Positions 5,388-61,458 of a stretch of 64,000 nt of DNA are shown here, piece after piece. The notes under the pieces were generated by a model that had not been told where the DNA came from, ran no database searches, and worked only from the letters and a program-made list of their open reading frames with translations. A program made the position numbers and the translations under genes. Source of the stretch: Myxococcota bacterium (GTDB taxonomy: Bacteria; Myxococcota_A; Polyangia; Nannocystales; Nannocystaceae); contig JBCCHT010000057.1 of assembly GCA_039028615.1 (NCBI GenBank), positions 1 to 64,000 of the forward strand, given 5' to 3'. Within the stretch, counting starts at the first letter, position 1. Each line of letters opens with the position of its first letter.

Positions 5388-7117
<1,730 letters not shown>

Positions 7118-7142
7118 AGGCAGCCGAGGAGCGAGACGAACG

Positions 7143-7754
7143 ATGAAGCGCGAACACGTCGATGGACGCCTCTTTGTCCCCGAGCTCACCGCGGGGGTCA
7201 GCCGCGACGGCAGCACCATCCAGCTGCTCGCCCCCGGGGTCGGGCACTGGGTCGGACCTCCGCTCGCGGGCAGCGTGGTGATGCCGGGTGGTCTGCTGGG
7301 TGAGCTGGAGATCCTGGGCGTACGACACCGCCTGCGGGCCCCGGCCGAGGCCAGCGGCCTCGTGCTCGCCTACGACGGTCCCCGCGTGGCCCGACGGGCC
7401 GTGCAGTGGAACGACGTGCTGGTCACGCTCGATCCCGAGGCCAGCCCCTCCGGGCTCGCCGCGGGCGATGCCTCGGCCGCGACCCAGAGCGACATCGGGG
7501 GGCTCGCGTTCTCCAGCCCGCTGTCGGGGCGCTACTACGCTCGCCCCGGACCCGACCAGGACGTCTTCGTGTCGGTCGGCGACGTGATCGAGACCGGACA
7601 GACGGTGGCCATCCTCGAGGTCATGAAGACCTTCAACCGGGTGACCTACGGCGGCGAGGGCCTGCCCGCGCGCGCGAAAGTGGTGGCCATCGTGCCCGCC
7701 GACGCCGACGACGTCGACGAGGGCGACGTGCTGCTGCGGGTCGAGCCCGCCTGA
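7143..7754 (+). CDS. accB: Biotin carboxyl carrier protein with an extra degenerate N-terminal biotinyl-like domain
   Basis: SPLSGRYY...FVSVGD...LEVMKTFN (biotinylated Lys). Confidence 0.85.
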
Positions 7755-48990: not shown

Positions 48991-49081
48991 CGATTGCTCC
49001 ATCGCCTCCCCCACCCTGGGTCATCGGCAGCGATGGGTCCGGGTGGGGCATCCAGCCCCAACCGCGCGGGCATGGAAACGG

Positions 49082-49120
49082 AACAAGGTCTCTTCCCGCT
49101 CGGGTCGAGACCTTTGTTGC
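49082..49120 (+). terminator. Possible terminator hairpin
   Basis: AACAAGGTCTC...GAGACCTTTGTT with inner CCCG/CGGG stem. Confidence 0.4.
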
Positions 49121-49323
49121 GTGATCGGTGGAGCCAATCCCCCCACCGAACCATCGTCGATCCGCGGGCCGCGCACCCTCATGTTGGACATGACAGGAAT
49201 CGCGCCGTCACTGCGGTGATCCGTCGCAATCGTCATCGTGCCTGCGCTCGCTCACCGCGCTACCCTTGGAACCGTTACTCGATTTCCCCTGAACCTGGCT
49301 CGCACAAAGAGGATCGCTTGAAC

Positions 49324-51789
49324 ATGAAACCGACCCGACGCCGCATCCCCTGGTCGATCGGCTGTGTGTCGTTGGTTTCGCTCGCCACCGCGGCTTGCGG
49401 AGACGACGCTCCCACCAACCCCACCGACCCCAGCACGACCTCCGGCACGTCCATCACCGACACCTTCCCCGACGACAGCTCTGGCACCACGGGCGGAGAG
49501 ACCGAGGGCAGCACCTCCGGCACGACCGAGGTCGCCGACGAGACCGGCGATACCGGCGAAGTCTGCGAGACGATCTTGTGCGGCGGGGTCTGCTGCGACG
49601 AGACCGAAGAGTGCGTCAACGACAGCTGCCTGCCGATCTGCGAGACCGAGATTCGCTGCGGTGAAGATCAAGAGCTGTGCTGCGACGAGGGCCAGGTCTG
49701 CTTGGCCACCGCATGCGTGACGCCGACCGGCGAGTGCACCGACGCCTACGACTGCGAAGAGGGGGAGTTCTGCGAGCCCACGCTCGGGCAGTGCCTGCCT
49801 CAGCCCGATCCCCTCGACTGCGAGCTCGTCCCCGAGTTCGACGACATCGAGGTTCAGGTCGAGTGGTCCTTCGAGGACGAGCAGATCATCTCGATGCCCG
49901 CCGTCGGCGACGTCGACGGTGACATGCGCCCCGAGGTGGTCATCAACACCTACTTCGCCACCGACCCCGGCGGCAGCTCGGCCGAGTTCTTCGGCGAGAT
50001 CATCGTGCTCGACGGCGAGAACGGCAACGTGCAGTTCCGCGTCGAGAACAACCCGGGCAGCGGCGAGTTCGGCTCGTACGCCCGCTCGACCATCGGCCTC
50101 GCCGACGTCGACGGCAACGACCTGGCCGACATCATCTATGTCGGCCGGCCCACCACGGGCATCGCCCCCTTCGCCAGCAACTCGTCGATCATTCACGCCA
50201 TCGACGGCCTGGGCAACACGCTGTGGGCCAGCCACGACGAGGACGACGAGCCGTACTACATCTACGTGCGCCACGGCGCCCCGGCCTTCGCCAACTTCGA
50301 CAACGACTCCGCGTCGGAGATCGTGTTCGGCACCACCGTGCTCGACAACGATGGCCTCGTCGTCTTCGACAACGACGTGTTCATCGGCGCCACCAACTAC
50401 CGCGGCGGCATCTCGGGCTCGAACGGCAACTACCTGGGCGGCATCTCGCTCATCGCCGACCTGACCGGCGACGACTATCCCGAGATCATCTCGGGTCGCC
50501 AGGCCTGGACGGTCACCTGGGACGACGGCGTCAGCCCGCCCGACGTCGAGCTGACCCCGCTGTGGGAGTACACCGGTCCCGATGGCTTCCCCGCCATCGC
50601 CGACCTCGATCTCGACGGTGACCCCGAGGTCGTCATCGTGGCCGACCCCGCGCCCTTCAACGTGCTCGACGGCACCATCATCGTGCTCGACGGCGCCACC
50701 GGTAACCTATGGTGCGGCATCGACCCGACCGGGGCCATGTGCGAGGGCAACGACTCGCTGCGCACCCAGCCCATCGACATCCCGGGCGGCGGCCGCGGTG
50801 GCCCGCCCACCATCGCCGACTTCGACGGTGACGGACGGCCCGAGATCGCGGTCGCGGGTGGCTCTTCGTACTCCGTGTACGACCTCAACCGCATGGGCGA
50901 GGACATCGTGCAGCCCGCGGGCGATCCTCCGCCCCAGGCCGGCGACATCTACGTGCGCTGGACCTCGACCACCCAGGACCAGAGCTCCAACGTCACCGGC
51001 TCCTCCGTGTTCGACTTCCAGGGCGACGGCATCTCCGAGGTCATCTACGCCGACGAGTGCTTCCTGCGGGTCTACAGCGGCGACGACGGCAACATCATCC
51101 TCGAGCAGGAGAACTCGAGCGCAACCATCCACGAGTACCCGATCGTCGTCGATGCCGACGGCGACGGAAACTCCGAGCTGCTGGTCGTGGCCAACGACGC
51201 CAACGCCGACGCCGACTGCGGGTCGATCCCCGGCTACGAGACCCGACGCGGCGTGTTCATGTACGGCGACGTCAACGACCAGTGGGTCCGCACCCGCCAG
51301 GTCTGGAACTCGCACACGTACCACGTGACCAACGCGACCTCGTCGGGCCTCACCCCGACCATGCTGGAGAACAACTGGGAAGACCCCCAGCTGAACAACT
51401 TCCGGCAGAACTTCCAGGGCGCGGGCGTGTTCAATGCCCCCGACCTGTCGGTCGACCTCTCCGTCGGCCTGGCCAACTGCCTGCAGAAGGAGTTCGAGGT
51501 CATCGCCACCGTGCGCAACACCGGCTCCATCGGCATCCCGCCGGGCGTCGACGTCACGCTCTACCGCGGCACCGACAACACCGGTGAGGTGGTCAGCACC
51601 CAGCAGACGGCCGTGCCGCTGCTCCCGGGCGCCTCCACCAACGTCTCGTGGCTCGAGCCCAACCCGGGCGGCACGCCGCAGGACTACTTCGTCGAGGTCG
51701 ACTTCGACGACGTCGATGTCGTGACCGAGTGCGACGAGGACAACAACACCGCCGACGCCAACGCGGTGGCCTGCCCGATCCCCGAGTGA
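49324..51789 (+). CDS. Large lipoprotein: Cys-rich region, FG-GAP/VCBS propeller, C-terminal CARDB-like domain
   Basis: Lipobox TAAC; repeated D[VLF]DGDxxPE; WN.H.Y..TN; PDL...VRNTG...ECDEDNN. Confidence 0.9.
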   Translation: MKPTRRRIPWSIGCVSLVSLATAACGDDAPTNPTDPSTTSGTSITDTFPDDSSGTTGGETEGSTSGTTEVADETGDTGEVCETILCGGVCCDETEECVNDSCLPICETEIRCGEDQELCCDEGQVCLATACVTPTGECTDAYDCEEGEFCEPTLGQCLPQPDPLDCELVPEFDDIEVQVEWSFEDEQIISMPAVGDVDGDMRPEVVINTYFATDPGGSSAEFFGEIIVLDGENGNVQFRVENNPGSGEFGSYARSTIGLADVDGNDLADIIYVGRPTTGIAPFASNSSIIHAIDGLGNTLWASHDEDDEPYYIYVRHGAPAFANFDNDSASEIVFGTTVLDNDGLVVFDNDVFIGATNYRGGISGSNGNYLGGISLIADLTGDDYPEIISGRQAWTVTWDDGVSPPDVELTPLWEYTGPDGFPAIADLDLDGDPEVVIVADPAPFNVLDGTIIVLDGATGNLWCGIDPTGAMCEGNDSLRTQPIDIPGGGRGGPPTIADFDGDGRPEIAVAGGSSYSVYDLNRMGEDIVQPAGDPPPQAGDIYVRWTSTTQDQSSNVTGSSVFDFQGDGISEVIYADECFLRVYSGDDGNIILEQENSSATIHEYPIVVDADGDGNSELLVVANDANADADCGSIPGYETRRGVFMYGDVNDQWVRTRQVWNSHTYHVTNATSSGLTPTMLENNWEDPQLNNFRQNFQGAGVFNAPDLSVDLSVGLANCLQKEFEVIATVRNTGSIGIPPGVDVTLYRGTDNTGEVVSTQQTAVPLLPGASTNVSWLEPNPGGTPQDYFVEVDFDDVDVVTECDEDNNTADANAVACPIPE

Positions 51790-52047
51790 TCGGCCGCTTC
51801 GTACGCGCCTGACGAGCGGGCGGGGACCTCGGTCTCCGCCCGTTTTCAATTGCGGCCCCAGAAGACCCGCTACGGGGCGTCAGACGACGCCCGAAGAAAA
51901 ATCGAAGTTTCCTTGTAATCGCCAGCCCGCTCGCGCGCCTCACCGTTGAGTACGGCAAAGCGAAGTGGCGCGCGGCCCCGATGTTGTTCGGAGCCGCGCG
52001 CCGCCACGGAGGTCTTTGCCCGACGACGAACGATTGAGGACTACATC

Positions 52048-52863
52048 ATGACCCACTACGCGTTTTCCAAGCTTCGTACCCTGGGCCTCGGGCTCGGTCT
52101 GCTGATTCCCGCCTTTGCCGTCTACGGCTGCGATCCCGTCGAGGAAGAGCCCGGAGCAGGCGAGTCCGGCGGCGCCGACGAAGGCGGTGCCGACGAAGGC
52201 GGTGCCGACGAAGGCGGTGAAGAGGGCGGAGCCGAAGGAGGAGGCGAAGGCGACGACGGAGCCGATGATGGGGCCGACGACGGCGAGCCGACCGACTGCG
52301 AAGAGGCCGAGCAAGCCTGCGCCGACGCGGACCTCACCCCCGAGCAGTGCGCCGCCGAGTTCCCCGAGTGCTTCGATCCGCCCGCGCCGCCCAGCTGCGA
52401 AGAGGCCGAGGAGATCTGCGCCGCCGAGAAGCTCTCCCCCGAGCAGTGCGCCGCCGAGTACCCCGAGTGCTTCGACGAGCCCAACGACTGCAAGGAGGCC
52501 GAACAGCAGTGTGCCGCCGACGAGCTCACGCCCGAGCAGTGCGCCGCCGAGTTCCCCGAGTGCTTCGACGAGCCCAACGAGTGCGACCAGGTCGAGGAGA
52601 TCTGCGCCGCCGACAAGCTCACGCCCGAGCAGTGCGCGGCCGAGTTCCCCGAGTGCTTCGACCCCGTGCCCCCCGAGTGCAAGGAGGTCTTCGGCCAGTG
52701 CGAAGAGTGGATGCTGACCGAGGAAGAGTGCGCCCTGGAGTTCCCCGAGTGCTTCCCCGCGCCCCCGCCCCCCGAGGTCAACTGCGACGAGGTCTGGGGT
52801 ATCTGCGAGAAGCTGGGCCTCGGCGAAGAGCAGTGCGTCTCCGAGTTCCCCGAGTGCTTCTAG
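52048..52863 (+). CDS. Cys-rich tandem-repeat lipoprotein
   Basis: GAGGA RBS; lipobox VYGC; six C-x6-C-x9-C-x6-CF units. Confidence 0.88.
   Translation: MTHYAFSKLRTLGLGLGLLIPAFAVYGCDPVEEEPGAGESGGADEGGADEGGADEGGEEGGAEGGGEGDDGADDGADDGEPTDCEEAEQACADADLTPEQCAAEFPECFDPPAPPSCEEAEEICAAEKLSPEQCAAEYPECFDEPNDCKEAEQQCAADELTPEQCAAEFPECFDEPNECDQVEEICAADKLTPEQCAAEFPECFDPVPPECKEVFGQCEEWMLTEEECALEFPECFPAPPPPEVNCDEVWGICEKLGLGEEQCVSEFPECF
52168..52212 (+). repeat. 15-bp tandem repeat x3 (encodes GGADE)
   Basis: GGCGGYGCCGACGAA x3. Confidence 0.85.
52297..52860 (+). repeat. Six intragenic repeats of about 93-105 bp
   Basis: CCCGAGCAGTGCGCSGCCGAGTWCCCCGAGTGCTTCGA recurs, more diverged in the last two units. 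Confidence 0.9.
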
Positions 52864-54355: not shown

Positions 54356-55219
54356 TCAGCCCACCGCTCGGGCGAAGGTGCCGGTATCGGTCTTGGGCGC
54401 CGTCTGGACGCCGAGGGCAGCGCGGAGCCGACGGGCGACCAACCGCGCGTCGGAATCACGCTGCGGCACCGAGGGCCGCAACATGCGATCGAGCGCGAGC
54501 TGGGCGGCGACTGGCAGCATGGGGGAGCCCGGAGGAAGCCGGTCGAAGTCGGGCCGGAACGCGATGCGACAGGCGATGTCGACCGGCATGTCCACGAACG
54601 GCGCATGGCCACTGATCGCATGCCAGAGCACGACCCCGAGCGAGTAGATGTCGGAGGCGGGGCGGCAACCGGTGCCGGCCAGCAGCTCGGGCGCAGCGTA
54701 GGCAGCAGCACTGCTCGCACGCGAGTCGAACGACAGCGGCTGCTCTTCGGCGGCCACGAGCGAGACTTGATCGAGACCGACCAGCTTGATTCGCCGGGCG
54801 ACGCCGGAGCGGATCATGATGGCGTTGGGCGAGAGGTTGCGATGCACCAGCCCCTCGTCGTGCAGCGCGGCCAGCCCTTCGAGCACCTGGGCCCCGAGGT
54901 CGAAGACCTCGAACCACGACATGCGACCGACCTCGGTCAGGGCTTGCGCCAGGGTCAGACCGTCCACGCCTTCCATGACCAGGCAGGGGCGACCGCCCTC
55001 GAGCAAGCCAAAGTCGACCAGGCGCACCACGTTGTCGTGCCGCAGCGCGGCCATGGCCTCGCCCTCGAGCAGCGCACGCTCCGAGTCGCCCTCGGCCCAC
55101 AGCTTGATGGAGACGGGGCCTGCGGTCTCGGTGTCCAGGCCTCGCCAGACCTGTCCGTTCGCGCTGGATGCTTGGAGTGACTCGACGCGATAGCGCCCGA
55201 ACAAGAGCTCACCGATCAT
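54356..55219 (-). CDS. Ser/Thr kinase-like protein, probable pseudokinase
   Basis: VSIK, H.NVVRL, YAAPE and DIYSLG present; HRNLSPNA replaces HRDLKPxN and VGL replaces DFG. Confidence 0.8.
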   Translation of the reverse strand: MIGELLFGRYRVESLQASSANGQVWRGLDTETAGPVSIKLWAEGDSERALLEGEAMAALRHDNVVRLVDFGLLEGGRPCLVMEGVDGLTLAQALTEVGRMSWFEVFDLGAQVLEGLAALHDEGLVHRNLSPNAIMIRSGVARRIKLVGLDQVSLVAAEEQPLSFDSRASSAAAYAAPELLAGTGCRPASDIYSLGVVLWHAISGHAPFVDMPVDIACRIAFRPDFDRLPPGSPMLPVAAQLALDRMLRPSVPQRDSDARLVARRLRAALGVQTAPKTDTGTFARAVG

Positions 55220-55517
55220 TCCATGTACTCGTTTTCGCGGTCGCACTAGTAGGACGAGGACCTGCATGCATCGCAGGCGCTTCGTAACCACCGTCGTTCC
55301 CCTTACGAGCTAACACGTGAAGCGGATCACGGCCGCCTCCATTGCGAGTCAATACGGCGACCCAGTGTCCACTTTCGGTTCGGACGCGAAGGGTTCACCC
55401 CACTGCGTTAAACGAACAACGCGATCACGACGAAGAGCATCGTCGCATCGCGTTTGATCGATCGATCGGCCACCGCCAACGAGTGTTCCGGCGGTCCGAT
55501 TCGTTCCCTCGACTCGC

Positions 55518-56816
55518 CTACGCGAGGAGTCCCTCGTGCGCCCGGAAGCCGGCGTCTTCGAGGGCACCTCGGATCTTGGTGAGGGCCCGCTCTTGCAGCT
55601 GACGAATGCGCTCGCGCGACAACCCGTGCAGCTCACCCACTTGTCGCAGGGTGAGGGTCTCGGCCCCGTCGAGCCCGAAGCGGTGTCGCAGGATGTCGGC
55701 CTCCATCGGACGCAGGGTCTCGAGCGCGTCGCCCAGCGCATCGTCCAGTCGCGTGTCGTGCAGGAGGTGATCGGCACTGGGACCTTCGTCGGCGATGACC
55801 TCGATGCCTCGCGCCACCCCTTCGCGATCGGGCTCGTCGAACGACGCGTCGCGTTGGGTCAAGGTCCGCTCGAGGCGCTCGAGCTTCTCCTCGGCCACGC
55901 CCAGCGCCTGCGCCAGCTCGGTGCGGTCGGGCACGCGCTGGTTGGCGATCTCGAACTCGCGACGCGCCTGCACCATCTTGTGCTGCAGCTCCACCACGTG
56001 CACGGGCAGACGGACGGCACGGCCCTTGTCGCTCAGCGCCCGGCCGATGGCGTGACGAATCCACCAGCTACCGTAGGTCGAGAACCGGAAGCCCTTGCGC
56101 GGGTCGAAGCGATCGACCGCGGTCATGAGACCCAGGTTGCCCTCTTGAATGAGGTCGGACAGCGGCATCCGGCCGTTGCGGCGATACCGATGGGCCATCG
56201 TCACCACCAGGCGAAGGTTGGCCCGCACCATCTGATGACGCGCGCTCGAGTGCGCCATGCGAGCGGCGCGAACGGAGTGGAGGTAGCGCTGGAAGGTCGC
56301 GCTGCCTCGCGCCGGGCTGCGCACGCCGAGGCTGGTGTTGCGCCCCTGGCCGGCGTCCATCGCCTCGAGGTCGGCCACGATGCGGTCGGCGATCTCCACC
56401 GAGGGATCGAGCTCACCCATCTCGTCGGCAAACTTGGCCCGGGTCGACTCGGCGGCCAGGCGGGGCTGCGTGCGAGGGCGACCGCGAAGGACGGCGGCGG
56501 CCTTGGTCATGGCCTTCATCGTCTTCGCCTTGCGGCCGTTGGACTCCAGGGATTCCCCGATGACCGCGAGCATGGCCTCGATGAAGGGCGCGTAGCCAAG
56601 GAGCTTCTCCCAGTAATCCCGTCGCAAGCGCTGGATTCGCTCGGCGACCTGGCGCTCCTGCGCGGCGTCCATCAGCTGCTCTTGGTCCAGCTCGGCGAAA
56701 TACAGCTCGATGCCCTCATCCGACCTGGGACCGGCATGGCTACGGTCCGCACCGCGGCGTTTGGGCTGGCGCTGGGAAGTCACTCCCCCCGTGGACGTCG
56801 TGTTTGCTTTGAGCAT
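55518..56816 (-). CDS. RpoD/SigA-like alternative sigma-70 factor lacking region 1.1
   Basis: ANLRLVV, DLIQEGNLGLM.AVDRFD..KGFRFSTY..WWIR, VRLPVH, LSRERIRQ; ATG 56816 preferred over TTG 56855. Confidence 0.93.
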   Translation of the reverse strand: MLKANTTSTGGVTSQRQPKRRGADRSHAGPRSDEGIELYFAELDQEQLMDAAQERQVAERIQRLRRDYWEKLLGYAPFIEAMLAVIGESLESNGRKAKTMKAMTKAAAVLRGRPRTQPRLAAESTRAKFADEMGELDPSVEIADRIVADLEAMDAGQGRNTSLGVRSPARGSATFQRYLHSVRAARMAHSSARHQMVRANLRLVVTMAHRYRRNGRMPLSDLIQEGNLGLMTAVDRFDPRKGFRFSTYGSWWIRHAIGRALSDKGRAVRLPVHVVELQHKMVQARREFEIANQRVPDRTELAQALGVAEEKLERLERTLTQRDASFDEPDREGVARGIEVIADEGPSADHLLHDTRLDDALGDALETLRPMEADILRHRFGLDGAETLTLRQVGELHGLSRERIRQLQERALTKIRGALEDAGFRAHEGLLA

Positions 56817-56833
56817 CGCTGGCCTCGAGTCGT

Positions 56834-56906
56834 GATCTACTTGGGGTTCGGTCAACTGTCAAAGGTTTGTACAAAAATAATTCAAGCTTTGACAAAGCTC
56901 TCACAA
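56834..56906 (-). promoter_or_regulatory. Candidate sigma-gene promoter overlapped by CarH-like operator
   Basis: Minus-strand TTGACA (56862-56857), 17 bp, TAGATC; plus-strand TnnACA units with ACA at 56871, 56892 and 56903; TGTCAAAG/CTTTGACA inverted repeat. Confidence 0.5.
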
Positions 56907-57080
56907 CGAGACGCGAATCGCAACGCTCCTTCGTGGCCGTGGAACGGGGAAAATTCGGCGATATGGGCCCAAAACGACGGTTTTCGGATCTGAGTTCGAT
57001 CCTGTCGACCGTACCCGGCCCTGTGGCATCCCGACGCAACCACCGAGATTACGGTAACGATGCGCGCGTTCATCGCTGTT

Positions 57081-57131
57081 CTATTGAACAACCTTTGACA
57101 ACATCTCAGCAGAGTGCACAATCTTCATACA
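57081..57131 (+). promoter_or_regulatory. Candidate carH promoter with tandem 10-bp operator repeats
   Basis: TTGACA at 57095-57100, CACAAT at 57117; ACA at 57088, 57098, 57118 and 57129 (first three fit TnnACA). Confidence 0.6.
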
Positions 57132-57165
57132 GCTCGGGGCGCGTGCGTCCGAAGACGAGGCGACC

Positions 57166-58095
57166 GTGGCCGATCAACAAGGCAAGTACCGCATCAACGC
57201 GGTCTCAGAGATGACCGGCATTCCATCCGCGACGTTGCGGGCATGGGAGCGGCGCTACGGCGTGCCCGAGCCTCGGCGCACGGAGTCCTCGTATCGCGTC
57301 TATAGCGATTCCGACGTGGAGCTCATCTGCCGGGTGCGGGACCTGGGAGAGCAAGGCATGGCGCCGTCCGAGGCCGCCAAGCTGGTGCTCGCCGACCTCG
57401 AGCGTCAGCGTAACGCGGCCCCGGCCAACGGGGCCGACCCTTACGTGGGCGCCACCCAGGCCATCGTGCACGGGGTCGAGGTCTTCGATCCCGAGCAGGT
57501 CCACTCTGCGGTTCGCCACGCGCTGGTGATGGGCCCCGCCACGACCGTCTTCGATCGAGTGTTTCGCCCCGCCATGCGGGAGATCGGTCAGCGCTGGCAC
57601 GACGGCACCTTCTCCGTCGGGCAAGAGCACATGGCCACCCAGATCGTCGAGGGCGCCACCATCTCCATGCTCAACCTCGTTCAACAAGAGGACGCGGACA
57701 AGAGCGCGGTGGTGGCCTGCTTTGCCGACGACACCCACTCGCTTCCCGTGCTCGGCTTCGCCCTGCACATGGCCACCTGGGGCTTCCGAGTCGTTCGGCT
57801 CGGCACGCGAACCCCCCCGGCCGCGATCCGGCAATCCATCGAGCAGCTCTCCCCTACCGTGGTGGGGCTTTCGGTCACCGTGACCCCTCCGCCCCATCGG
57901 GCGCGAGAACTCGTCGAAGAGTACGCCAGCGCATGCCGCAACACGCCGTGGGTGGTCGGCGGTGCGGCTGCGGCCGACCTCCGCCCGCTCATCGAGCAGC
58001 ACGGCGGCCAGGTCATCGAGGGCTATTCCCCTCGCGAGATCCGGCGGGCGATCGAGACGACCATCACCAAGCACCGCCGTCGCAAACGCTCCTGA
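57166..58095 (+). CDS. MerR-family B12-binding regulator (CarH/CarA/LitR family)
   Basis: TLRAWERRYG; W-x9-EH (WHDGTFSVGQEH); DTHSLP...LSVT...VGG cobalamin-binding motif. Confidence 0.92.
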   Translation: MADQQGKYRINAVSEMTGIPSATLRAWERRYGVPEPRRTESSYRVYSDSDVELICRVRDLGEQGMAPSEAAKLVLADLERQRNAAPANGADPYVGATQAIVHGVEVFDPEQVHSAVRHALVMGPATTVFDRVFRPAMREIGQRWHDGTFSVGQEHMATQIVEGATISMLNLVQQEDADKSAVVACFADDTHSLPVLGFALHMATWGFRVVRLGTRTPPAAIRQSIEQLSPTVVGLSVTVTPPPHRARELVEEYASACRNTPWVVGGAAAADLRPLIEQHGGQVIEGYSPREIRRAIETTITKHRRRKRS

Positions 58096-58149
58096 ACGGC
58101 GGGTCCCCGGCGGGGCCTCGGGTATGAGACACTCGATTTTCGAAGCCCC

Positions 58150-58986
58150 ATGACCGCATCGACCTGGCCCGACGGTACCGAGCGACGCCCCTACGCCCTC
58201 GACGAAGCCTACGCGTGGTGTGAGGCAGTGGTCGCCGACCACCCCGAGCACTACCCGGTGGCCTCGCCCCGCATGGCCGAGCCCCTGCGCCGCCATGCTT
58301 CGGCCGTCTATGCGTTCTCGCGGGTCGCCAACGACTTCGCCGATCACCCCGACTACGCCGACCGGCGGGGCAAGTGCCTCGACGCGTGGCAGGAGCTGCT
58401 CGAGCGGGCCTACCACGGCGAGTCCGAGCACCCGGCCTTCGTCGCGCTCGAGGCCACCGTGCGGCAGGCCAACATCCCGGTCACTCCGTTTCAGGATCTG
58501 CTCGCGGGGTTCCGCATGGACCTGAGCAAGCACCGCTACTCGACCTGGGGCGAGCTGCTCAACTACTGCACGCTCTCGGCCGTCCCCGTGGGTCGCCTCA
58601 TGCTCTTCTTGGCGGGCGAGCAGCGACCCGAGCTGCAGGCGCTGGCCGACCCCCTGTCCATCGCCATGCGCATCGCCGACATCCTGCTCGACGTGGGCTC
58701 CGATGCCCGCCAAGGCCGGGTGTACCTGCCCGACGAAGACCTCCTGCTCTTCGGCGTCGACCGCAGCGCCCTCGCCTCGAGCGAGCGCTCCGTGGAGCTG
58801 GGCGAGCTGGTGTCGTTCCAAGCCGCCCGCGCCCGCATGTGGCTGGCCCGCGCCCGCCCCTTGCTGCGCAAGGTCGGCCCCGGCCTCGCCGACGAGGTGG
58901 AAGGCATCTGGCAGAGCGGGCAGAACACGCTCGACCAGCTCGAAGCGGGCACCATCGACGTGCTCGCCGACCGCTCCTCCAACTGA
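58150..58986 (+). CDS. Squalene/phytoene synthase family, HpnC-like
   Basis: HPEHYPVAS, VYAFSRVANDFAD, YC..SA.PVGRL, GRVYLP. Confidence 0.85.
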   Translation: MTASTWPDGTERRPYALDEAYAWCEAVVADHPEHYPVASPRMAEPLRRHASAVYAFSRVANDFADHPDYADRRGKCLDAWQELLERAYHGESEHPAFVALEATVRQANIPVTPFQDLLAGFRMDLSKHRYSTWGELLNYCTLSAVPVGRLMLFLAGEQRPELQALADPLSIAMRIADILLDVGSDARQGRVYLPDEDLLLFGVDRSALASSERSVELGELVSFQAARARMWLARARPLLRKVGPGLADEVEGIWQSGQNTLDQLEAGTIDVLADRSSN

Positions 58987-59003: not shown

Positions 59004-60062
59004 ATGCTCGGGCTCGGTGCAGCCGCGTTGCTCGGGGCCCTGAGCCTCGGACCCGGCGCGCCGACGGCCCCGATCCCCATCGAGTGGTCTGCCCCTGCGC
59101 AGTGCCCCGACGAGTCGCGGGTGCAGCAGTGGTTGGCGGAGGCCCTGGCCGACAGCGCCGCCGATCCGGCCGGGATTCGGGCCCGGGTCGAGATCACCGA
59201 AGTCGACGATGGCCTGAGCCTTCGGCTCGCGCTCGATCGCCCCGAGGGCCCGGTCGGCCGCCGCACCATGAACGCCAGCGACTGCCATGCCTTGGCGACC
59301 GCGGCGGTCCTGGTCATCGCGCTCACCGTCGATCCGCAGGCCGAGATCGGTGCGCTCGACGAAGAGCCCGTGCCCTCCGAGCCGCAGTTCCCGGAGCCCG
59401 TCTCGGTCGTGCCCGTCGTCGAGCCCGAGCCCGAGACCCCCGCGGAACCGGAGCCCGAACCCGAGCCGCCCCCCGCCGCCGAGCCGAGCCCGCAAGCGCC
59501 TCGGCCGACGCCCGCCGACGCGGCGCCCGAGCCCGAGCCGCGCGTACGAGTGAGCGCGCGAGCTTCGGCCGCAGCGGGGCTGTCGGTGCTCTCGGGTCCG
59601 ACCGCCGCGCTGTCACTGACCGCGATCCTTCACGGGCACCGTTTTCGAGCGGAGTTCGGGGGGAGCTACTGGACCCCGGTCGAAGCCCGCGCCCCCGACG
59701 GCCCGGGCGGGCGGATCCAGCAGTGGACCGTCGACGCCCGCGGCTGCGGCGTGCTTCGTCCGGGACCACTGGAGTTGCCGCTGTGCGGAGGCCTCGACAT
59801 CGGTGCCGTGCATGGCCAGGGCATCGACGTGCTCGACCCTCAGCGAGTCACCTCCCTGCGGCTGGCCGCCGCCGCAGGAGCAGCCGTGCTGTGGCGCCCT
59901 GCTCGACTCGGCGGACGACTCGGGCTGTGGGCGGGCGCAGATGTGCTCGTCGCCCTGGTTCGCGCCCGCTTTCGACCCACGCCCGCGGCAACGGCGCTCG
60001 CGTACTACACCCCGCCCGTGGGCGGCCGGCTGGGAATCGGGGTCGAGGTACGATTTCGATGA
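59004..60062 (+). CDS. Secreted protein, WxAPxxCP N-domain plus probable beta-barrel
   Basis: WSAPAQCP; PE-rich linker; RGC...LPLCGG; ends VEVRFR; paralog of 42178-43143. Confidence 0.78.
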   Translation: MLGLGAAALLGALSLGPGAPTAPIPIEWSAPAQCPDESRVQQWLAEALADSAADPAGIRARVEITEVDDGLSLRLALDRPEGPVGRRTMNASDCHALATAAVLVIALTVDPQAEIGALDEEPVPSEPQFPEPVSVVPVVEPEPETPAEPEPEPEPPPAAEPSPQAPRPTPADAAPEPEPRVRVSARASAAAGLSVLSGPTAALSLTAILHGHRFRAEFGGSYWTPVEARAPDGPGGRIQQWTVDARGCGVLRPGPLELPLCGGLDIGAVHGQGIDVLDPQRVTSLRLAAAAGAAVLWRPARLGGRLGLWAGADVLVALVRARFRPTPAATALAYYTPPVGGRLGIGVEVRFR

Positions 60063-60130
60063 CGGATCGGCGGGGCGGCGGACTTCAACAATGACGTGGA
60101 CGACCCGCCGCCACGTCCGCCCACGAGCCC

Positions 60131-60661
60131 TTGCTCACCCTCGAAGACATCTACGCCGAACACTGCGGGTTCGTGTGGCGCACGGTCCTTCGCATGGGCA
60201 TCCCCGAGCACGCGGTCGAGGACTTGATGCACGAAGTGTTCTTGGTGGTGCAGCGCAGGCTGGGTGACTACGACGGGCGGGTCGCGATGACCACGTGGCT
60301 GTATCACCAGACCCGCGGCGTGGTGAGCAACGACCGCCGTCGCCATCGTCGCGAGCAACGACGCATCGCGCTGGTCGACCCCAAGCCCCAGGCCGCGCCC
60401 GACCCCGAGGTGCAGACCGAGCGCCAGCAGGCGGCCCAGTTCGTGCGCGAGTTCCTGGAGCAGCTCGACCCCGACAAGCGGGAGGTCTTCGTGCTCGCCG
60501 AGATCGAAGGGCACCCCATGCCGGAGGTCGCCCGCAGCCTGAAGATCAAGCTCAACACCGCGTACTCCCGCCTCCGGGCCGCGCGCACCAGCTTTCAGCG
60601 GGCGGTGAAGCGCCGTCGAAGCGGCGACGCGCCCGCTCAGTATCGGAGCCGAGTGGGATGA
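60131..60661 (+). CDS. ECF sigma-70 factor
   Basis: FVWRTV, VEDLMHEVF, TWLY, VFVLAEIEG, NTAYSRL. Confidence 0.92.
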   Translation: MLTLEDIYAEHCGFVWRTVLRMGIPEHAVEDLMHEVFLVVQRRLGDYDGRVAMTTWLYHQTRGVVSNDRRRHRREQRRIALVDPKPQAAPDPEVQTERQQAAQFVREFLEQLDPDKREVFVLAEIEGHPMPEVARSLKIKLNTAYSRLRAARTSFQRAVKRRRSGDAPAQYRSRVG

Positions 60662-61458
60662 ACGAGCGCCGCCAGATGCCCGAGCTCGGCGAGGACGAGG
60701 CCGCCCTTTTGGGTGCCTATCGAGCGGAGACCGAGATGCCGCCCGAGCTCGGCGCTCGGGTGTGGGATCGCCTCGAGGCGCCCGCGCCCGTGGGGCTCGA
60801 GGCCGCGGGATGGTCGGTGCGTGGCGTGGTGGTGGGCATGCTGGCGGCCGCGGCCGTCATCGGGCTGTGGATCGGGGCGCAGCAGCTTCGAACGAGCCCG
60901 ACGCGGGCGCCCGCCGAGCAAGCGGGCTACCAGCACGGCGGAAACGGGTCGCCCGAGGCCGCCACGCCCCGGGAGCCCGATGCGGCGGCCTCCAAGTCGG
61001 ACACCGCGGGCTCGACCGCCCTCCCCGAGCGCGCTCCCTCGCCCGATACGAGCGCGCCATCGATCGTGCCCGGTCCCACCGACGACGCGGCGCCGACCGG
61101 TGCCTCCAGCGGGTCCCCGGCCCCCGCGTCGAACCGAGCACCCTCCCGTCGCTCGCCGGCCTCCACGTCGACGCCCGAGCCCGCGCCGACCGACCGCCTC
61201 GCAGAGGAAAACCGCGTGCTCAGCCGCGCCCGCAAGGCCCTGCTCGACCACGCGCCCGAGCGCGCGCTCGAGCACCTGCGCGACCACGCCCGTCGCTTTC
61301 CCCGCGGCGTGCTGTCGCCCGAGCGCCAGGCCCTGCGCGCCATTGCGCTGTGCGAGGCCGGCCGTGAGATCGAAGGCACGGCGGCGGCTCGCGGTTTCCT
61401 GCGTGCGCACCCGCAAGCGACGCTGGCCGCTCGCGTCCGCACCGTGTGCCTGAAATAA
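60658..61458 (+). CDS. Putative membrane-bound anti-sigma factor with TPR-like C-domain
   Basis: ATGA-coupled to the ECF gene; RVW; TM; ARKAL...HARRFPRG..SPER..ALC..GR. Confidence 0.78.
   Translation: MNERRQMPELGEDEAALLGAYRAETEMPPELGARVWDRLEAPAPVGLEAAGWSVRGVVVGMLAAAAVIGLWIGAQQLRTSPTRAPAEQAGYQHGGNGSPEAATPREPDAAASKSDTAGSTALPERAPSPDTSAPSIVPGPTDDAAPTGASSGSPAPASNRAPSRRSPASTSTPEPAPTDRLAEENRVLSRARKALLDHAPERALEHLRDHARRFPRGVLSPERQALRAIALCEAGREIEGTAAARGFLRAHPQATLAARVRTVCLK

Follow-up and report, generated by a model that had tools for sequence, protein, structure and literature searches.

A predicted CarH operator over the promoter of a group-2-like sigma factor gene in a Nannocystaceae genome

Does a B12-dependent photoreceptor control the synthesis of a sigma factor in the Nannocystaceae? 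The question is raised by a stretch of 64,000 nucleotides from a Myxococcota bacterium (contig JBCCHT010000057.1 of assembly GCA_039028615.1), hereafter the window, which represents contig C57 of a 12.3-Mb genome that is 97% complete. Here carH (57166..58095, plus strand) stands back-to-back with a gene for a sigma-70 factor (55518..56816, minus strand). An earlier note on this DNA, made from its sequence alone, proposed that light could derepress the sigma gene through the CarH-type protein and so drive a wide regulon. The derepression step is backed by a strong and conserved predicted operator that lies over the sigma gene's own -35 element, and direct repression of the sigma gene by CarH appears highly probable from the sequence. 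The best reading of the locus is a relay like that of Streptomyces LitR-LitS, but with a sigma factor that is not of the extracytoplasmic function (ECF) type. As a whole, a CarH-gated relay that leads from light to the sigma factor and on to a distinct regulon is in our judgment moderately probable.

The predicted operator and its repressor

The sigma gene is preceded by a predicted sigmaA-type promoter (56834..56862, minus strand) composed of a -35 element, TTGACA (56862-56857), a 17-bp spacer, and a -10 element, TAGATC (56839-56834). The -35 element and a -10 element starting with TA are kept in 6 of 6 members of the genus; a consensus scan, which demands T at the last -10 position, missed this promoter. 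The predicted CarH operator (56856..56899, minus strand) consists of four in-register 11-bp repeats, drawn in the same frame as in Fig. S10 of PMC9304148. Two degenerate repeats are followed by two perfect ones (TGTACA-N5-TTGACA), the last of which includes the -35 element. The predicted carH promoter (57080..57122, plus strand; TTGACA at 57095-57100, 16 bp, CACAAT at 57117-57122) has a weaker operator with one perfect repeat and a slipped one, which scores 18.7 bits and ranks seventh in the genome.

These scores derive from a motif found de novo in 23 regions upstream of carH, crtD or crtE, and photolyase genes of relatives, a training set that held no sigma regions and none from the present genome. 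The motif is composed of two TnnACA-like repeats spaced 11 bp apart, and its repeat is the CarH repeat ACCTTTGACAA reported for E. salina and P. pacifica (PMC9304148, Fig. S10), a one-base variant of which is bound in vitro at a S. cellulosum site (PMC9304148). The sigma site (56874-56857 on the sigma sense strand) ranks first of 24.5 million positions with 31.1 of 31.4 bits, the next position reaching 23.6, and a matrix built from other genera alone still places it at the top. Upstream of the four other sigma genes that were tested in this genome, scores stay below 7 bits. Among 381 TTGACA sites, the upstream half of the sigma site scores 18.9 and that of the next site 7.6, and a perfect repeat 11 bp upstream of TTGACA is found at only two. 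Because its upstream half alone separates the sigma site from the 380 other TTGACA hexamers, the site is more than a -35 element. Nor is the motif merely the sigma gene's own promoter, since it also occurs at carH and crt promoters in genomes that have no sigma ortholog (G017, G085, and G087).

The predicted repressor is a 309-residue protein with a MerR-type DNA-binding domain and an adenosylcobalamin (AdoCbl)-binding domain; MerR_1 (PF13411), B12-binding_2 (PF02607), and B12-binding (PF02310) all match above the Pfam cut-offs. The earlier note had described a MerR/B12 regulator with RxWERRY, W-x9-EH, and D-x-H-xx-P motifs, and all of these domains and motifs are found in the translation (R25-x-W27ERRY31; W144-H145-x8-E154H155; D189-x-H191-x2-P194-x41-S236-x-T238-x26-G265G266). 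It thus carries the motif set that defines CarH, namely RxWERRY, an intact Wx9EH with His after Trp, and D/ExHx2G/Px41SxT/Vx22-27GG. RxWERRY, W144, H145, E154, H155, H191, S236, T238, G265, and G266 are invariant in all 11 aligned homologs, and the intact Wx9EH with His after Trp is what discriminates CarH from CarA according to PMC9304148. The best matches in the PDB are to T. thermophilus CarH (5C8D and 3WHP, E 4e-24), with which the protein shares its domain order, RxWERRY, W-H-x8-EH, and the B12-binding His, although it is distant in sequence. A supply of AdoCbl in the host is plausible, since the genome also encodes B12 adenosyltransferases of two families (PduO and CobA type), a methylmalonyl-CoA mutase, and a large protein with a B12 domain, probably MetH. 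By analogy, this member of the CarH family probably serves as a light-sensing, B12-dependent repressor. It is the sole CarH of the genome. Several other genomes of the family (G003:C62, G004:C1, G014:C1, G017:C241, and others) have an additional CarH-like gene that is more distant (36-42% identity), with tandem copies in two genomes of genus g2.

Conservation of the operator and of gene order

The earlier note had suggested that the divergent pair be checked for synteny as a conserved unit. Profile searching across 73 genomes of the family, together with trees, defined a clade of 20 intact sigma orthologs. These come from 6 of 6 genomes of the present genus, 8 of 8 of g15, and 6 of 11 of g10; most of the family's remaining genera yielded no full-length ortholog among the 73 genomes. 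The present genome is the only one in which the sigma gene and carH are directly back-to-back. In eight genomes the two genes diverge with 2.7-10.4 kb of photolyase and/or crt (carotenoid biosynthesis) genes between them, in two the sigma gene converges on a photolyase gene that adjoins carH, in five it lies behind crtE or reaches the edge of a contig in a fragmented assembly, and in four it adjoins an adenylate kinase gene away from carH, among genes that we take to be ribosomal-protein genes. A conserved direct pair was rejected, given that none of 25 carH loci of relatives and none of 27 carH loci from across the phylum has a sigma gene closer than 1.5 kb. Taken strictly, the synteny check set by the earlier note therefore fails. 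What persists is a looser linkage to carH, crt, or photolyase genes (16 of the 20 orthologs).

The genes found between carH and the sigma gene in relatives are crtE, crtD, crtC, a glycosyltransferase and an acyltransferase gene, crtB, crtI, and a class II photolyase gene. The present genome carries its crt block on C43, its photolyase gene on C32, and the TIGR01777 gene on C17, while both flanks of the carH-sigma locus match those of G005. From this we infer loss in place: the direct adjacency likely arose in this lineage when the separating photolyase and crt genes moved elsewhere. As judged from these comparisons, the conserved unit is the predicted operator on the sigma promoter rather than the gene pair. 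The class II photolyase gene (C32:69632-71733, L296) sits directly behind msrA, and msrB follows the crt-linked sigma gene in G015.

Operators were surveyed at 249 loci, which gave 166 distinct sigma genes with enough upstream DNA, the rest being duplicates, partial genes, or genes that do not encode sigma factors. With a threshold of 14 bits that was chosen after the scores had been seen, and with related genomes counted that are kin and not independent, sites of at least 14 bits stand upstream of 18 of the 20 clade orthologs in three genera, but upstream of none of the 101 core or out-of-family paralogs and none of the 25 other duplicates. The background in the present genome is 54 of 9337 gene upstream windows. 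Three of the four adenylate-kinase-linked orthologs, away from carH and crt, keep a site of at least 14 bits, and the fourth scores 12. Genera g15 and g10 often have another hexamer in place of TTGACA and nevertheless keep the repeats. A frameshifted ortholog in G084 (L284:~6000-7180; genome 63% complete), interrupted at several places, keeps the operator and is either an assembly error or a pseudogene. G079 was considered as a control in which both CarH and the operator are lost, and was rejected in that role, its crtI running off the contig end at the point where carH would be expected and degenerate repeats remaining.

An exact operator pattern, written after the sigma sites had been seen, occurs at 59 sites in 33 of the 73 family genomes, versus 5 for the reversed control, and these sites lie mostly at carH, crt, and sigma promoters. 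The pattern also occurs before DUF4397 lipoprotein genes in three g10 genomes (L391, L392, and L394), and the third-ranked site of the present genome precedes a DUF4397 gene as well (C1:621993-623040, L455). Because DUF4397 genes are marked in both g10 and the present genome, the matrix appears to find a conserved regulon, which is independent support for it. CarH-type repeats likewise precede a fasciclin gene in G043. On sequence grounds, the DUF4397 lipoprotein and fasciclin genes are candidates for further CarH targets.

CarH-type repeat arrays are also found upstream of further duplicates of this sigma family, which form groups in genera g14 (L380 and L399-L404), g4 (L427, L429, L431, L432, and L434), g17 (L374, L419, and L420), and g2 (L370 and L430), with sites of at least 14 bits in 5 of 7, 4 of 5, 2 of 3, and 2 of 5 group members, respectively. 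Where the wider context was read, these duplicates stand far from carH and crt. A single clade of all operator-bearing sigma factors was rejected by the approximately unbiased test (p-AU 1e-5) on a quick LG+G4 tree of 28 of the 166 rows, the group having been named after the trees were seen. This rejection points to more than one recruitment of the operator, or to losses.

The sigma factor, the proposed relay, and its alternatives

The sigma gene ends with a stop codon at 55518 and likely starts at the ATG at 56816, which gives a product of 432 residues, rather than at the TTG at 56855; a GAGG ribosome-binding-like site (56823..56826, minus strand) lies 6 nt before the ATG. The product comprises region 1.2, a helical insert of ~130 residues, and regions 2, 3, and 4. 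Regions 2 and 4 exceed the Pfam cut-offs, and regions 1.2 and 3 give weak matches under the cut-off (E 0.04 and 0.034) and are both helical in the structure model, so the sigma-70 gene with regions 1.2-4 that the earlier note placed back-to-back with the regulator is indeed there. Its label of a primary-like sigma factor does not hold. Region 1.1 is absent, His and Gly occupy the positions of E. coli Q437 and T440, and the RpoD model scores 200 bits against a cut-off of 354, which led us to reject assignment to group 1. Elsewhere, the genome has two full-length RpoD-type genes that encode Q437 (C1:724360-726150 and C27:118762-120561), and we therefore term the factor group-2-like. The layout, with regions 1.2, 2, 3, and 4 (1.2 and 3 weak) and no region 1.1, is that of the group 2 factors RpoS, cyanobacterial SigB/D, and mycobacterial SigB, from which the present factor differs in its His437, its insert, and its membership of a class-restricted family. 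To our knowledge, light induction of the cyanobacterial group 2 factors does not use CarH.

Scores on the RpoS, RpoD, and SigB models are comparable, and the protein reaches none of the curated equivalog or subfamily cut-offs, only that of the general sigma-70 superfamily model. Its structure model has a mean predicted local distance difference test (pLDDT) score of 84.6, with 30 disordered residues at the N-terminus, and matches RpoD/SigA chains best (E 5e-14) with a template modeling (TM) score of about 0.4, which is low because the domains are placed differently. The factor is one of four paralogs in the genome with His at the Q437 position. Members of its family were detected in 36 Polyangia genomes and in none outside the class among 250 sampled genomes; the named relatives of the family are Nannocystaceae. 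The cultured species Paraliomyxa miuraensis encodes a clade member that is 65% identical (WP_266221495.1). Identity with M. xanthus SigD was also considered, and a literature search on that question yielded no papers. A metagenome scan returned generic sigma factors only. In the open-licence PMC and bioRxiv literature, subscription papers lying outside the search, we found no CarH-controlled group 2 sigma factor and no study of this Polyangia family.

In the proposed mechanism, AdoCbl-dependent CarH oligomers would occupy the predicted 11-bp repeats in the dark and cover the -35 element of the sigma gene. In the light, photolysis of the Co-C bond would disassemble the oligomers, as expected from known CarH chemistry, and CarH would be released and the sigma factor made. 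AdoCbl-bound CarH oligomers are described as covering the -35 element in the dark and coming off in the light (PMC9304148, PMC8156234). The sigma gene would then be transcribed from TTGACA-N17-TAGATC, which is similar to the M. xanthus PB promoter (TTGACA, TACCTC; PMC9304148, PMC8156234). CarH likely also represses its own gene and the HpnC-like gene behind it (hpnC*) through the separate, weaker site ~200 bp away. Finally, the induced sigma factor would extend the light response to genes that have no operator, most likely those for photo-oxidative stress; this is the least-supported step. Region 4.2 is conserved in the factor, which suggests recognition of TTGACA-like -35 elements.

The earlier note did not know this architecture to be described. 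In Streptomyces LitR-LitS (PMC11519972), however, an AdoB12-dependent MerR photoreceptor is modeled as repressing the bidirectional promoters of itself and a neighboring sigma gene, and light frees the sigma factor to act on its targets, so only the sigma class and the lineage appear undescribed in the literature searched. An operator on the sigma promoter is shared with LitR-LitS, here as a prediction from sequence. LitS, though, is an ECF sigma factor shown to drive crtEp, whereas the present factor has 432 residues and regions 1.2-4, and for this reason we do not count the system as a member of LitR-LitS. Here, too, each gene has its own site, ~200 bp apart, and adjacency is not conserved. 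CrtS, a SigB-family factor, induces carotenoids upon overexpression in S. griseus (PMC11519972). The protein motifs and the 11-bp TnnACA repeats over a sigmaA-type TTGACA are those of myxobacterial CarH-crt regulation, and the crt clusters of relatives have the design of those of E. salina and P. pacifica (PMC9304148, PMC8156234). In the portions of PMC9304148 available to us, the myxobacterial CarH targets are crt genes and carH with no sigma factor among them, and photolyase goes unmentioned. CarQ is an ECF sigma factor of a separate, B12-independent pathway confined to the Cystobacterineae (PMC9304148, PMC8156234).

The photochemistry of CarH itself is already known. The relay, if true, would turn myxobacterial CarH from a local carotenoid repressor into the head of a sigma cascade, would give the unstudied Polyangia sigma family its first function, and would represent convergence on LitR-LitS logic with a different sigma class. 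With P. miuraensis as a cultured carrier, the idea is testable.

Several observations weigh against the relay. The NCBIfam CarH equivalog NF052513 is the best family for the protein but stays under its cut-off (124.6 versus 400 bits); we take this model to be taxonomically narrow, and the criteria of PMC9304148 do not use it. A perfect -35 element lies inside the operator, so part of the operator's conservation reflects promoter function. The orthologs of G003 (8.5 bits) and G079 (12.0 bits) fall below the 14-bit threshold, itself set post hoc and applied to kindred genomes. The remaining points concern targets. Replacing Q437 with His makes C at -12 acceptable to E. coli sigma70 (PMC2613000), and we considered His437 as a trait of the light clade that reads crt promoters with C(-12). 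This idea found no support: all 28 family members read from across the class have His437, and C(-12) occurs equally at the crtE and carH promoters of genomes that lack the ortholog and is about as common as T genome-wide. Because C(-12) does not track the ortholog and His437 is class-wide, comparison of the crtE and carH promoters with and without the ortholog identified no sigma target.

The alternative that survives best, though we consider it unlikely, is that the sigma factor is controlled by CarH and light but has no regulon of its own, serving redundantly as a booster or competing with sigmaA and the core paralog at the same TTGACA promoters. Its regions 2.4 and 4.2 are nearly identical to those of non-light paralogs, crt promoters look alike whether or not the ortholog is present, and most other genera of the family show no full-length ortholog. 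Yet sigma factor and operator have been retained in 20 genomes and several contexts, and the operator-bearing duplicates outside one clade suggest repeated selection for a light-controlled copy. Moreover, G005 (94% complete) and G001 (72% complete) keep carH, photolyase, and the sigma gene with no crtI above the family cut-off. Together with the weak operators of the present genome's own crt promoters (4.5 and 10.8 bits; block C43:9585-18214, L294), this hints at a role of the sigma factor beyond carotenoids or as a relay. The split crt blocks of G014, G017, and G080 keep operators of 16-27; weak sites are able to bind CarH (PMC9304148), so the low scores are no proof of operator loss.

It is improbable that CarH represses the sigma gene in response mainly to B12 supply rather than light, as might happen in sediments. 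In the myxobacteria tested, lack of B12 derepresses the CarH targets even in darkness (PMC9304148), and the weak crt operators would fit such a role, but the W-H-x8-EH photoreceptor motif is intact and the regulon in relatives consists of photolyase and carotenoid genes. We give as little credence to a strong sigmaA (or self-recognized) promoter free of CarH control, with adjacency as a by-product of gene loss, since this would account for the one-in-20 adjacency and for a near-palindromic motif that contains TTGACA, of the kind expected from overlapping divergent -35 elements, but not for the discriminating upstream half of the site, the excess of exact-pattern sites over the reversed control (a post hoc pattern), or the repeats conserved in g15 and g10 despite altered hexamers.

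A broader version of the CarH-gated relay is possible, if on balance doubtful. It holds that the Nannocystaceae have repeatedly placed duplicates of the Polyangia-wide His437 group 2 sigma factor under CarH, which would create a global program triggered by B12 and light where the CarQ pathway is absent, and that in the present genome, strong crt operators having been lost, the sigma factor would be the main relay from light to photoprotection.

Neighboring genes and the crt block

Both neighbors described in the earlier note are present. The HpnC-like squalene/phytoene-synthase-family gene (58150..58986, plus strand) is likely co-transcribed with carH, and in 5 of 5 genus relatives carH is likewise followed by an HpnC-like gene. 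It is a second, divergent copy that scores 221 bits against the TIGR03464 cut-off of 250, and thus falls outside HpnC proper. Its first Asp-rich motif reads ND where the canonical HpnC of the genome, which adjoins an HpnD-like gene on C13, has DD; all five aligned genus copies have ND or NA. The Ser/Thr pseudokinase gene (54356..55219, minus strand; likely start 55219) lies 299 bp downstream of the sigma gene, and a pseudokinase gene occurs within two genes downstream of the sigma gene in 3 of 6 genus members. HRD reads HRN and DFG reads GLD in the protein, and both motifs are degenerate in the two aligned orthologs as well (H-x-N and GL-x in all three), unlike in active Hanks-type kinases. 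Matrix scoring found no operator belonging to either neighbor itself.

Downstream of hpnC*, window positions 59004-61458 encode a secreted-looking unannotated protein, an ECF sigma factor, and a putative anti-sigma factor, a group that is syntenic in several genus members and G017 and gave no operator evidence. A Cys-rich repeat lipoprotein (51946-52863) and an FG-GAP/CARDB protein (48994-51789) are typical of the lineage. No homolog of the lycopene cyclase-CrtU fusion was found in the present genome. Lipocalin and SOUL heme-binding genes adjoin the C43 crt block. In many crt clusters of Myxococcota, a gene for a protein of ~225 residues without a Pfam hit stands after carH or faces crtI (L061:15250-15921; C43:9585-10175 in the present genome), and the predicted fold of its product resembles outer-membrane beta-barrels (TM about 0.56).

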